A DNA stretch of 64,000 bases, taken from Felis catus. Its lineage: Eukaryota. Below, in pieces: positions 13,562-47,895 of this stretch; position 1 is the first letter of the stretch; each line of letters opens with the position of its first letter. The position numbers and the translations under genes were made by a program. The notes beneath the pieces were generated by a model that saw only the letters and a program-made list of their open reading frames with translations, searched no databases and had not been told where the DNA came from. The DNA lies in the NCBI RefSeq assembly GCF_018350175.1, contig NC_058382.1:8866001-8930000 (forward strand). Reading direction: 5' to 3'.

Positions 13562-14705
13562 AGATTTATCTGGTTGCCTAAATACCGGATTCATTTCCTC
13601 GGGTCTGATCCTCATTTTAGCTTTCCGAGAGGAGAGGTCTGGGGCTCGCCTCCTGTCCTAGAAGGAGAGCCCGGGAACCCGGGTCCCTTGGTCATGGCAG
13701 GGCCCCCTGGCTGAGATGTAATTCCCCAATCGAGGAGTGGGGAAGGGCCAGCCCTACCCAGATCTCCTCCCCCAGCCTCGCCCCCTCACAGGACGCCCCC
13801 TCCCGGCTCTTCCAGCCCAGTTGCCTCTGGCCTTTTCCAGTCCCCCAGCCAGGGCTGGGAGCCGGGGCAGAGGGGTCAAGAACCAACCCGGGTCAACGAA
13901 GACAGGGCGCCGAGGTGCTGGGGGGACCCGAAGCAGAGTAAGAACCGCGGGACCAGGGGTCCACACCCCTCCTGCGTCAGACCCAAGAGCCGGTCCCCAG
14001 CCATCTTCCACGCCAGTTCCCAGGAGTTAAGCTCCCATCTTTCTCCTCCACCCAGACTCCTTAGTCTGACCCCAGCCCCCTCCACCCCAACGCGACCACA
14101 CAAGGGCCTCATCGGGGAGGCCCAGATGAAAGTTCTAGTCAGAGAGGGGTCGGTCTGCGAGATCCTGGAACAATAGGCGGGGCCTCCCTTTGTTGCCGTC
14201 CAATCAGACTCAGAGTTGGGTTTGTGGGCGGGGCCAAGGAAACTCGCCCAGAGTGTCTCTTGAGAAGTCGGCGCCCCAAGGAGAAAGGAAGAAGAGGGAC
14301 TCTGTGGGATTGAGGCGACCTTCGAGTCTGACTCCAGTCATAAAGCTCTCCACGTCACGTGACCAACCTCACCTTCGCTCCAGAAACGTCCTCAATTTTA
14401 GCCGTGGCAAATAGAGTGGAAGGACGTGACCCTATCGTCCCCTCTAAAGGCCCCCAGCCTGGATTCGGCCCTTCAGCGAACCCTAGTATTCCAGGGTGCA
14501 ACATTCAAGGTCAAGGTCGGGCAGCGGCTGTCTAGGGTGCATCGGGACTCCGGACTCCTCGGTTTCCTAACCGAGAAGGGGGAGCCCTGCAAATTGGGGG
14601 GTCTTACTCTCGGGGAAGAGGTTCTTTCCGGTCAGCGATCACCCCTTCCGTGTGGGGTGGGTGGACCCTCCCCGGGGTTCTGCTGGGGCTGAGCGCCCTG
14701 GGGAA

Positions 14706-17700
14706 ATGGGTCCCCAAGTTGCCCTCCTGGTGGTGGCGCTAGCCGGCTGCCTGCTTCTTGCCCGGAGCTGTGTCACTTGCGATCGAAGGGTCGTGGCCGC
14801 GCTGGACGCCTTGGAAAAGGAATACCTGCCTACCCACCTGGCGCCCGAGCGTCACAGAGAAGTGATGGAAAAGATAAGACAAACCGTGAGGAATTTCCGG
14901 GACCTGCCAGATTTAGAGGATACCTTTCTGGGGGTTATCGGTGAGGGCAGGGTAGAGAGTGCGAATCCAGGGGTCGAGGGAAAAGAGGGGTCTGCGTTCT
15001 AGGATGGTTGCGGGAGCGGGCAGGAGGGAAGGAAGCGAAAGACTGGAGGGAGACTGTACTGGGTTCGTGAATGGAGAAGGCTGGGATGCAGATTCCAGGC
15101 CTTCCCCAGGGCAGACCAATACACTTTCCCCTAGTCCTTACGTGGCAATTTTATGTGGGGAAAAAAAATACAACTCCCAGAAGGCAGCGGGCGTGCCAGC
15201 CATTTACAGCCCTGGGCTGGTCCAGTAGCCTCATGGGTATTGTAGTTTTGAACACCTGCTGAGCCAAGAGACCTCAAGGCTTGGAATCTGAGGTTCTAGC
15301 TCCCCTCCCCGCATCCTCTGTGTCCCTCCAGATGAGGCCACGATGGAAACGTCAGTCTTGAGTTTTCTGAGGAGTGTGAGACTTATCAGAAACAGTGGGG
15401 CAGCAGGTAAATCCACACAGGGGCCGCGGGAGGGGCTCCAGAATCTTTTCGAGAAATGATTGTTGGTGAGGACAGGTCTGGTGGTGGCTCTGGAGGCCAC
15501 CTGCCTCGGTTCAAATTCCGGGCCGGTCATCCCCTAGCTCTATGGCCTGTAGGGAGGGACTTTGCAACTTTGTCACCTCTCAAATGGGTCCTAACAGTGC
15601 CTGCAGGCCAGGCGCCGCTTAGCTCAGTGGCCCGCATTGTTAAGTGGTCATTCAATGTCACTGTCCCTCCCTGAGATGGCCCCAAACCCTAACCCTCTTC
15701 AGATGGAGGCAAACTTCCTGCATCTCCTCCTGGGGTGGGCGGGGGAGGGGTACCACTCTATGTCACCCTGCTCCTTCCCAGATGACACTTTCGTGAAGGA
15801 GTTCTCCTGGATGTTGACTCTGGAAAAGGCAGCCTTTCGTGGCTACGTCACTCGATTCCAAAGAGAGGGTGAGGGAAGATGGCTTCCGTCAGGGACCACG
15901 GCCCCTTCCCCCAACAGGCCCAGGGACCCTGTCCCCAGCCCCCTGCTTTCTATGTCCAACCACTCACCTCTCCCGACCCGGTCCTTCCTTGGACCCAGAG
16001 ATTCAGACACCCGGGTCCTTCTTCCCTCCAACCCAAGAGCACAACCCCCAACCTATTCCTTTTCGCCCCCTCTCATCCCATTAACAGGAATCTGATAATC
16101 CTTTTTTGTTTTTGTTTTGTTTTTTCTTCCTTCTGAGGCAGATTTCTGTCCCAACAAATGTGGTGAGTCCGGATTACCGGAACTGGTTTTGTATCCTTCA
16201 TCCTTGCCCCGTGAATACCCAGCCTTTCTCCTCCGGCTTTGGGTCTCGGTGGTTCTTCCTTCCCCACGTCTGAGGGGTTCCTGGTCCCCAGTAGTCCTTC
16301 TGCACAGCGGACTTCCTGGATAGCGGGTCCCCTTCTCTGGGCGCTCTTTCCTGAGATTGGTTACACCCCTCTTCAGGGAGGACTGCCTTCTAGCCCCGCC
16401 CCTTGGGCTGACCTCTAGGGATTAGGGGCCTGACTCCGCCCCAGAACTTGGCCCTGCCCTCTCCTTTTAGCCTCGCCTCTCAGGGCGAATACAGCCTGGA
16501 TCCTGTCCCTTCAGGTACAATGTTGCAGCTTCTGATCTGGTGCAGTAACTGTAAAAAGCAGCTTCACGTTTGTCGAAAATACAGAGATTGCGGGGGTGAG
16601 AGAGCTGGGGCCAGCCGCAGGGGTTGGCGCAGGAGGGGCGGAGCCAGAGGAGAGACTTGGCCTAGAGAGGGCGGGGACTGGAGCGGAGGGTGGAGACAGA
16701 AAGGGGGGCCTAGACAAAGTGGGTGGCACTGGCGGGAGGGCAGGAAAACCTTGAAGAAGGGTCCCACCGTAAATCCTGTCCCCAGTGCGCCAAATCAACG
16801 TCCATGAAACGGAAGACCTGATCCTGGACTGTGAGCTCGACTGGCATAAATTATCTCAAGGCCTGACCTATTACAGCTTTTACAGGGTGGGCCCTTTAAC
16901 CCCAAGTCCATAAGGCTTGTGTGAGCGCCGACCCCCTCATCCACAAGCTTGTTGCCACAATCCCCATGACCCATGACCCACCAGGTTTGACTTCTACGGA
17001 TCCCCGGGGACCCCATGCCCTTACCAGTGACCCTGGACTCCCATCTCCCCCACTGAGAGCCCGTGATGCCCTCACACCTGTACGGCCCCAAACCCTGAAT
17101 TCCCCAGGCCTCTGTGACCCCTTGAGCTTGGGTCTAGGTTTGGGGGAGCAATTCTGAGACCTTGGTGTCCGAGGGGAAACGGCCCACGCTGATCAAGCGA
17201 CTGGTGAGGCCAGAGGATGCGGGTAACTACCGCTGCGAGTTGGGCACTGAGCGATCCGGCCCAGCCACGGTCATCCATTTTGAAGTCACAGGTCAGAGCT
17301 GGTGGTCGGCAGACGTATGGGACTCAGGGTCCTGGGTATGGGGGGCAGTCAGCTTCAGCGAGCGCCCTGGGGGGCCTAACTTTCTGTCGGGGTGTGGTTT
17401 CAGGCCAACGGGGGGTGGCTTCCTGCCCAGGGTGCGGCCGCCTCTCACAGTGGCCTGGCTTCAGGCAGTGAGGGGCGTGTTTATCTCCTGGGAGGCCTGG
17501 GTCCTGGGGAAGGGTGGCGTGGACAGAGCTTGCCTGGGCCACGACCGGCCCTCCCAGCACTGCCCCTTCTCTCTCCTCTGTCAGTGTTGCCCAAAAGAGT
17601 CATTGAGGAGATCCCGAAATCAAAGCCCGGGACCCAGTATCAGCGGTTTCGATCCCTCAAGCCGTCAGAGTGTCCGAATCCCAAGGACGCGCTGAGAGGC

Positions 17701-18179
17701 TTTCTGTTCGAGATGCTGATCTGGGGCTTTGTGTTTCTGATCCTCGGCTTTGCCACCTCGTGAGCCGCCTCCCGGAGAAGGCGGGGCTTGGGGCGAGGGG
17801 CGGGGTCTCCAACGTCCGAAGGTAGGAGGAGGTGTTAGGGGGAGGGGCTTAGAAAAGAGGGGCGTGCTTACCCAGGGCGGCGAAGCTTGGGTCACAGAAA
17901 GGATCAGATATAGGGAGGCTGGGAGGGGTGTCCCTCACTCAAGAACTAACCTGCTTACACGATTGCACCCCACCCTTCCCCAGCGTACTTTGCTTTAGGT
18001 CTGGGACCCTGATCGATTCGGTCAAGTCCTGGGTCCGTACCGACAAGGCAGCAGCCCCCGAGGACCAGGGTCCACAAAGTCGGCTGTCACAGACCCAGCT
18101 ATCACAGACCCAGGTGTCACAGACCCAGCTTCCCAAGGTACCGAACGAGGAAAAGGCCACAGCACCAAGGCTTAAATAA
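14706..18179 (+). CDS. IZUMO1: IZUMO1 copy 2, intact, 374 aa; exons 14706-14940, 15332-15406, 15782-15868, 16142-16162, 16515-16595, 16786-16886, 17138-17291, 17585-17759, 17984-18179
   Basis: All GT/AG boundaries present, no stops, 1125 nt; tail extended by SQTQL-type repeats. Confidence 0.9.
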
Positions 18180-47287: not shown

Positions 47288-47399
47288 AGATTTATCTGGT
47301 TGTCTAAATATCGGATTCCTTTTCTCCGGTCAGATTCTCAGTTTTGGCTTCCCGAGAGGAGAGCTCTGGGGCGGGTCTCCTGTCCTCGGAGAGACTGGG

Positions 47400-47686
47400 A
47401 AGTCAGTTCCCTGTGTCAAGGCAGTGCCCAACTAGCTGAGATGTAATTCCAGAATCAAGGAGTAGAGAAGGGCCTGCCCTACGCAGATCTCCTCCCCCAG
47501 GCCCGGTCCCCTCACAGGACGCCCCCTCCCAGCTCTTCCTGCCGGGTTTCCTCTCGCCTTTTCCTGTCCCCCACCCAGTGCTGGGAGCCGGGGCAGAGGC
47601 AAAGGCTGAACGGGAACAGCGGGGTCAGGAACCAACCAGGGCCAACGGAGCCAGGGCCCCGGGGTGCTGTTGGGACCTGAAGCAGG
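47400..47686 (+). promoter_or_regulatory. Probable RASIP1 promoter and non-coding exon 1 (donor AGG|GTAAGA at 47686/47687)
   Basis: Lies between the IZUMO1 polyA signal (47283-47288) and the acceptor (47890-47891) of the ATG-containing RASIP1 exon; strong donor. Confidence 0.65.
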
Positions 47687-47895
47687 GTAAGAACCGCGGA
47701 GCCAGGAGTCCAGACCCCTCCTCCCTCAGACCCAGTGGCCAGTCCCCACCCATCTCCCATCCCAGCACCCAGGAGCTTAGCTCCCATCCGTCTCCTCCAC
47801 CCAGACTCGCGAGTTTGAGCCCCAGGCCCCTCCATCCCCAACCCCACTACTCGGGGCCTCAGGAGTTGGGGTCTTACCCATCCTTCCTTAGGGCC

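Follow-up and report, generated by a model that had tools for sequence, protein, structure and literature searches.

Duplicated RASIP1 promoter/exon-1 blocks in an old IZUMO1 array of the cat are probably neutrally decaying passengers

When a gene is duplicated together with the promoter of its neighbour, does the copied promoter come to serve the next gene in line? A locus of the domestic cat raises this question. IZUMO1 is essential for sperm-egg fusion, RASIP1 is an endothelial-enriched gene, and a 64-kb window of the Felis catus genome (contig NC_058382.1, positions 8,866,001 to 8,930,000; coordinates below count from the first nucleotide of this stretch) has the gene order FUT1–IZUMO1×7–RASIP1, with a piece resembling the start of RASIP1 behind each IZUMO1 copy. 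A sequence-only reading of the window proposed that these pieces gave downstream IZUMO1 copies a second, somatic promoter. We arrived at a different answer: with a probability of about 0.72, the blocks are passengers that decay neutrally and have no selected function. The copies are denoted C1 to C7, the duplicated blocks behind the first six B1 to B6, and the genes, blocks and insert are given on the + strand.

Behind all six upstream copies, at 73-80% identity, lies a repeat of the segment that starts at the last IZUMO1 poly(A) signal and runs into RASIP1 intron 1, and the claim that a RASIP1 promoter/exon 1 duplicate stands ahead of each next IZUMO1 copy held at 6/6 inter-copy junctions. 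In self-BLAST, 47228-47861 aligned with 13505-14111 (79.5%), 46762-47861 with 37432-38501 (75.7%), 32586-33685 (74.2%) and 42101-43129 (73.2%), and 22282-23181 with 46799-47737 (76.7%); B2 is contained in the match of 13542-18690 with 42625-47806. The duplicates occupy 13580-14118 (B1), 18198-18735 (B2), 22750-23179 (B3), 33149-33692 (B4), 37949-38506 (B5) and 42663-43189 (B6). The exon-1 donor states given earlier were largely right: GTAAGA is present at 13938, 23131, 38331 and, in the native block, 47687; a 12-column deletion removes it near 18582; and GGAAGA is found at 33532 and 43046. Two points needed revision. The donor at 13938 reads AGA/GTAAGA (the slash marks the exon end), a G>A change at position -1, and the GT>GG changes of B4 and B6 count as one event because these blocks are 98-99% identical. 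B1 also carries a 23-nt deletion in its exon, and B3 ends at 23179, where a 6.5-kb insert takes the place of the remaining block and of the 5' end of C4. We also observed repeated occurrences of a CCCTCCTCCCTCAGAC motif, in RASIP1 intron 1 (47700-47860), in the copies of that intron, and at 2855 and 60364-62308 (10 sites at <=2 mismatches). The motif appears to resemble the MSR1 minisatellite of human 19q13.

The five surviving junctions all share one breakpoint, which connects RASIP1 intron 1 (~47865) with sequence upstream of IZUMO1 (~9640); by eye, the two sides may overlap in CCTC. The recurrence is therefore a single event that was inherited, and calls for no repeated selection. Because the RASIP1 promoter and its non-coding exon 1 are situated about 200-400 bp behind the IZUMO1 poly(A) signal, one old tandem duplication would have copied the RASIP1 pieces together with IZUMO1; the duplicated span would have reached from ~9640, at the IZUMO1 promoter, to ~47865 in RASIP1 intron 1. 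We infer that unequal crossing-over then multiplied the unit and that gene conversion made it a mosaic. Selection would have kept the IZUMO1 frames and their own promoter core, and the RASIP1 pieces, released from constraint, would have decayed neutrally. The locus shows the features of a tandem array: head-to-tail paralogues, a shared junction, a lineage-restricted clade, and mosaics of conversion or unequal crossing-over (C7; B4/B6). The Drosophila Sdic array, where an AnxB10/sw chimera became a new chimeric gene, is a parallel in that tandem duplication of two adjacent genes made a junction that was then amplified as a sperm-gene array. Unlike Sdic, each cat unit retains a complete IZUMO1 along with that gene's promoter, and there is no constraint on the part derived from the neighbour.

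The proposal of a second promoter presupposes that the RASIP1 promoter lies within the duplicated unit. The 3' primer of human RASIP1 reporter constructs, given in a table of PMC6190810, matches the native block (47545-47564) at 19/20 bases, and this primer's seven best sites in the window coincide with the seven blocks, at 0-4 mismatches against 5 at the next-ranked site. The second human reporter primer maps to IZUMO1 intron 8; the human reporter therefore extends into the IZUMO1 body, which is also duplicated. In 47501-47692 the native block differs from the other blocks' consensus at 6/185 sites, versus 51/334 in the flanks (p=1e-5), and sliding windows detected 0-2 native departures per 60 nt across 47470-47709. 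Three TTCCT cores lie in the native block (47536, 47548 and 47561); we take them to be ETS-type, a label for which a chromatin immunoprecipitation listing gave no support. Judging from the primer match and the native-only constraint, the duplicated block very probably contains the RASIP1 promoter and exon 1, as had been claimed, and we place the native core promoter and non-coding exon 1 (donor at 47687) at 47501-47692. RASIP1 exon 2 (ATG at 47897) and exon 3, at 47892-49381, lie outside the duplicated unit and match the Pfam RA domain (E=1.3e-10). Also outside is the RASIP1 CpG island, which overlaps exon 3 and starts near 48600 (CpG observed/expected ratio 0.86-1.1 at 48600-49400). This Ras-association-domain gene is presumably RASIP1, as the primer match also indicates. 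The mouse Sox17 site (ATTGT) described in 10.1101/2022.11.01.513960 was not found in the native block; among the blocks it is present only in B4 and B6.

A promoter inside the block is what one would expect if the duplicates drove vascular or placental expression of some IZUMO1 paralogues under selection, with donor loss elsewhere selected as well. The evolution of the duplicates speaks against this. We counted leave-one-out departures in five independent duplicate lineages, omitting B4 as a near-copy of B6. Across the core (47501-47692) the duplicates depart at 123/885 sites versus 6/185 for the native block (Fisher p=1e-5), and star-tree branch lengths are 0.024 for the native core and 0.10-0.23 for the duplicates. 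Measured against their own flanks (177/1509 departures), the duplicate cores show no sign of a captured promoter maintained by selection (p=0.13), the exon half of B3 excepted, and invariant columns among the duplicates number 75/192 versus 697/1526 in introns (p=0.09). Zero invariant counts beyond 47740 are a product of the B3 truncation and were not used. The idea that the blocks persist as functional promoters in somatic tissue thus finds no footing, as the duplicates evolve at flank-like rates; from decay at the neutral rate we infer that they probably lack a selected function. No duplicate has retained all three ETS-type cores of the native block (kept: 0, 1, 1, 2, 2, 2; none in B1, one in B2, two each in B4 and B5), and the TGTGGT site of the native-unit intron 8 is kept only ahead of dead-donor blocks (C2, C6). 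IZUMO1's own promoter core, with what we take to be CCAAT and GC-box motifs, has 48/56 invariant columns among the copies, and its retention by every complete copy also counts against a selected second promoter. The duplicates, decaying beside a constrained original, provide an internal control by which the RASIP1 core promoter/exon 1 can be delimited to about 47500-47690.

In favor of selected somatic expression, intact GT donors precede the open copies C2 and C6, and donor loss in other units had been taken as possible selection against chimeras. The GT donor was lost in 2/5 lineages; the decay seen in the individual blocks predicts 1.32 losses (P(>=2)=0.40, P(<=2)=0.89), and 46% of the core dinucleotides (n=191) were lost in two or more lineages. 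Intact GT precedes C2, C4 and C6 (2/3 open), and a lost donor precedes C3, C5 and C7 (2/3 open). Donor loss therefore equals the neutral expectation, and whether a donor survives bears no relation to whether the copy behind it is intact, giving no signal for or against selection on donors. Moreover, B1, which precedes C2, has a weakened donor and has lost all three ETS-type cores. Selected vascular or placental expression is, on this evidence, very improbable.

The pre-ATG acceptor, to which such a donor would have to be joined, had been noted for copies 2 and 6. It is not peculiar to them: it is seen in five of the six copies retaining the region (C2, C3, C5, C6, where it lies at 39040-39041, and C7), and C1 reads AC for AG. 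All six complete copies carry a donor-like CAAG/GTCGG upstream of it. Because the ten-exon mouse Izumo1 has alternative first exons that are spliced to a common exon 2 (PMC6395798), the candidate acceptor in cat is most likely IZUMO1's own exon-2 acceptor. The annotated felid model P0051 reads straight through the short IZUMO1 first intron. This intron (43590-43670 and homologues) has 66/80 invariant columns, above the preceding exon, which points to a regulatory element or to use of this stretch as exon. In C1, whose type is the orthologue used in the carnivore study cited below, the pre-ATG position (10164-10180) reads AC; the C1 5' untranslated region (UTR) is therefore spliced differently or the short intron is retained.

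Several observations weigh against regarding the blocks as neutrally decaying passengers. A B5-to-C6 splice is geometrically possible and would give a 245-nt 5'UTR without ATG. In B5 the donor is intact, two ETS-type cores remain, and there are 11 CpGs versus 9 in the native block. The human promoter primer matches B4 at 20/20 bases and B6 at 19/20. The exon half of B3 differs at 3/95 sites versus 48/340 in the other four lineages (p=0.002). In addition, gene conversion blurs the independence of the copies, a few retained sites could be functional even if the region as a whole is unconstrained, and the limits of 47501-47692 and of the window for the IZUMO1 core were chosen with sight of the alignment. 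As to B3, its upstream half is decayed (15/92 sites differ), and at 7 sites in 47501-47737 it is native-like where most duplicates share another base (<=2 in other blocks); its near-native exon half points to conversion or later origin from the native copy, though selection is possible too. B3 leads into the insert and the pseudogene C4.

A compatible donor and acceptor ahead of an intact open reading frame occur at two of the six junctions, B5-C6 and, with the weakened donor, B1-C2. A passenger block might leak: B5 (less likely B1 or B3) would initiate weakly in endothelium or other soma and produce small amounts of chimeric or read-through RNA that serve no selected function. The native-type donor of B5 (AGG/GTAAGA at 38331), its two of three ETS-type cores and its ATG-free leader make it the best-preserved candidate, and the upstream IZUMO1 body that forms part of the human RASIP1 reporter fragment was duplicated with it. 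Promoter capture in aromatase excess syndrome yields 2-5% chimeric mRNA (PMC3272822), which also favors a leak. Yet the B5 core is changed at 23/182 sites, two other pyrimidine-rich AGs are found between the B5 donor and the C6 acceptor, and the downstream CpG island is not in the duplicated unit; we consider such leakage unlikely. That B5 is a working endothelial promoter, whose two ETS-type cores and donor suffice for a RASIP1-exon1/IZUMO1-C6 mRNA, is more doubtful by far. If it were true, cat vascular or placental cells would bear a hinge-altered IZUMO1 as an adhesion or fusion protein, and a gamete-fusion gene would have been recruited to the soma. Of the chimera envisaged in the sequence-only reading, the B5-C6 splice geometry is supported and the selected somatic promoter role is not.

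A search for 38000-38500 in sequencing runs listed 24, of which 20 contain the stretch and 4 are unindexed raw-read runs. Of the containing runs, 12 are guessed to be RNA (and may be DNA), 6 are of unknown type and 2 are metatranscriptomes; their shares of 0.79-1.00 are as genomic DNA would give, and exon-only runs could be crowded out. Promoter capture here is of little consequence unless RNA evidence appears. Among documented cases, aromatase excess syndrome comes nearest to the proposed mechanism; in it, exon 1 of DMXL2, TMOD3, CGNL1 or MAPK6 is spliced to CYP19A1 exon 2 (PMC3272822). There, as at the cat locus, a rearrangement sets a neighbour's promoter and exon 1 before the pre-ATG acceptor of an intact gene. 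In the syndrome, as that source describes it, the chimeric mRNA is demonstrated and the captured promoter is pristine, whereas in the cat the chimeric mRNA is a prediction, the blocks are old and drifting, and half of their donors are dead.

The array itself consists of C1 with its own promoter (9640-13561; coding sequence 10248-13561, 353 amino acids), C2 (14119-18179, 374 amino acids), C3 (18736-22731, 355 amino acids), the 5'-truncated pseudogene C4 (29690-33130), C5 (33693-37930, 368 amino acids), C6 (38507-42644, 405 amino acids, the most divergent) and C7 (43190-47287). Seven AATAAAGATTTAT poly(A) sites correspond to the seven units. Five of the seven copies (C1, C2, C3, C5 and C6) are open through the ectodomain and transmembrane helix, with an Izumo domain, an Ig domain (Pfam PF15005, PF16706) and nine coding exons, as in mammalian IZUMO1; the match to the solved human IZUMO1 has E=9e-12. 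C4 is broken. C7 is a mosaic, its 5' part ~98% C5 and its 3' part ~99% C2, with a TAG at codon 113. It adjoins RASIP1, and the annotation of a clouded-leopard relative, P0013, gives an open protein of 374 amino acids. Protein identity among copies is 56-74% (C2/C7 95%). An assembly artefact was ruled out: the units are 75-87% identical in self-BLAST, and the conceptual proteins of C1 and C6 show 0 differences from the annotated cat proteins XP_006941089.3 and XP_023101450.2, respectively. C5 is 99.7% identical over 340 amino acids to F. catus P0015. Nor are C3, C5 and C6 pseudogenes by early stops, as these stops fall within the last exon and other felids show equal protein lengths, including the short tail of C3. 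Pairwise ratios of nonsynonymous to synonymous rates over exons 2-8 are 0.48-1.06 (15 pairs); the frames are nonetheless open across felids. The membrane-proximal stalk encoded in exon 9 is lengthened by Ser/Thr/Pro-rich repeats to 235-268 nt in C3-C6 versus 175 nt in C1, C2 and C7.

The copies differ at the hinge. W148, K154, H157 and R160 (primate numbering), residues to which we ascribe weight in JUNO binding, are kept in C1, C2 and C7, as in other mammals. Y157 and further hinge changes are present in C3, C5 and C6 as well as in their felid orthologues, some of them common to hyena and meerkat copies (C5 reads V153, Q154, N156, Y157); the altered hinge lies in exon 6 at 21105-21185 (C3), 36202-36282 (C5) and 40884-40964 (C6). 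A carnivore study places the hinge among JUNO-contact clusters (10.1101/2022.03.22.485370). The strong divergence of C6 at this JUNO-facing site is what a protein with a new job might show, and to that extent favors selected somatic expression; C3 and C5, however, show the same H157Y without a donor.

With C2 exon 2 as the query, 64 proteins were retrieved; all 61 named ones come from felids, hyenas or the meerkat, and 3 are unnamed. In trees, the 21 feliform rows all group in a single clade, separate from pinnipeds and other mammals (100/100). The tree used for the approximately unbiased (AU) test kept 28 of 53 rows, with two pinnipeds as the caniforms and no dog, bear, mustelid or civet/viverrid rows; there, an independent expansion in felids, with the 11 felid rows held together, was rejected (AU p=0.012). 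Several paralogue lines therefore appear to predate the cat/hyena/mongoose split, although conversion may blur this dating. Other work takes each mammalian species to have a single IZUMO1 orthologue (PMC3432370, PMC4807442, PMC8830517, 10.1101/2022.03.22.485370), the last of these, a carnivore preprint, giving it 346 amino acids. In contrast, the cat has seven tandem copies, shared with hyenas and meerkat, and three of the open ones are hinge-altered. Our literature searches, which covered open-access text, found no paper describing an IZUMO1 expansion in cats or carnivores, and the accessible portions of PMC3432370, PMC4807442, PMC8830517, PMC10312551 and PMC11011130 do not mention feliform copies. 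RefSeq annotates copies as 'IZUMO1-like', and the GenBank cat deposit WMV02795.1 is of C6 type (4 differences), which suggests that someone has worked on the cat copies.

The rest of the window holds few further features. On the left flank lies a fucosyltransferase coding sequence (5796-6875; Pfam Glyco_transf_11, E=5.8e-127), presumably FUT1 by synteny. The SINE-type repeats of the window are of a kind expected in a feliform. The insert that replaces the promoter and 5' end of C4 (23180-29689) contains three SINE-like copies (SINE, short interspersed nuclear element) and what we take, from a retroviral resemblance, to be degenerate gag-like (~24130-24450) and env-like (~28500-28880) remnants; Pfam did not confirm these, with 0/3 matches for three insert frames. 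The B3 donor lies 49 nt before the insert, which has pyrimidine-rich AGs at 23310 and 23495, so that a spliced non-coding RNA from B3 into the insert is possible. The RASIP1 interior holds a 140-nt assembly gap (56400-56539).

The IZUMO1 array, old and diverged, is more notable than the promoter blocks. Feliforms carry several old IZUMO1 paralogues, some with a changed JUNO-facing hinge. The array bears on the choice of orthologue in selection scans and on hybrid fertility in felids, as well as on antibody work in cat sperm and contraceptive targeting in cats.

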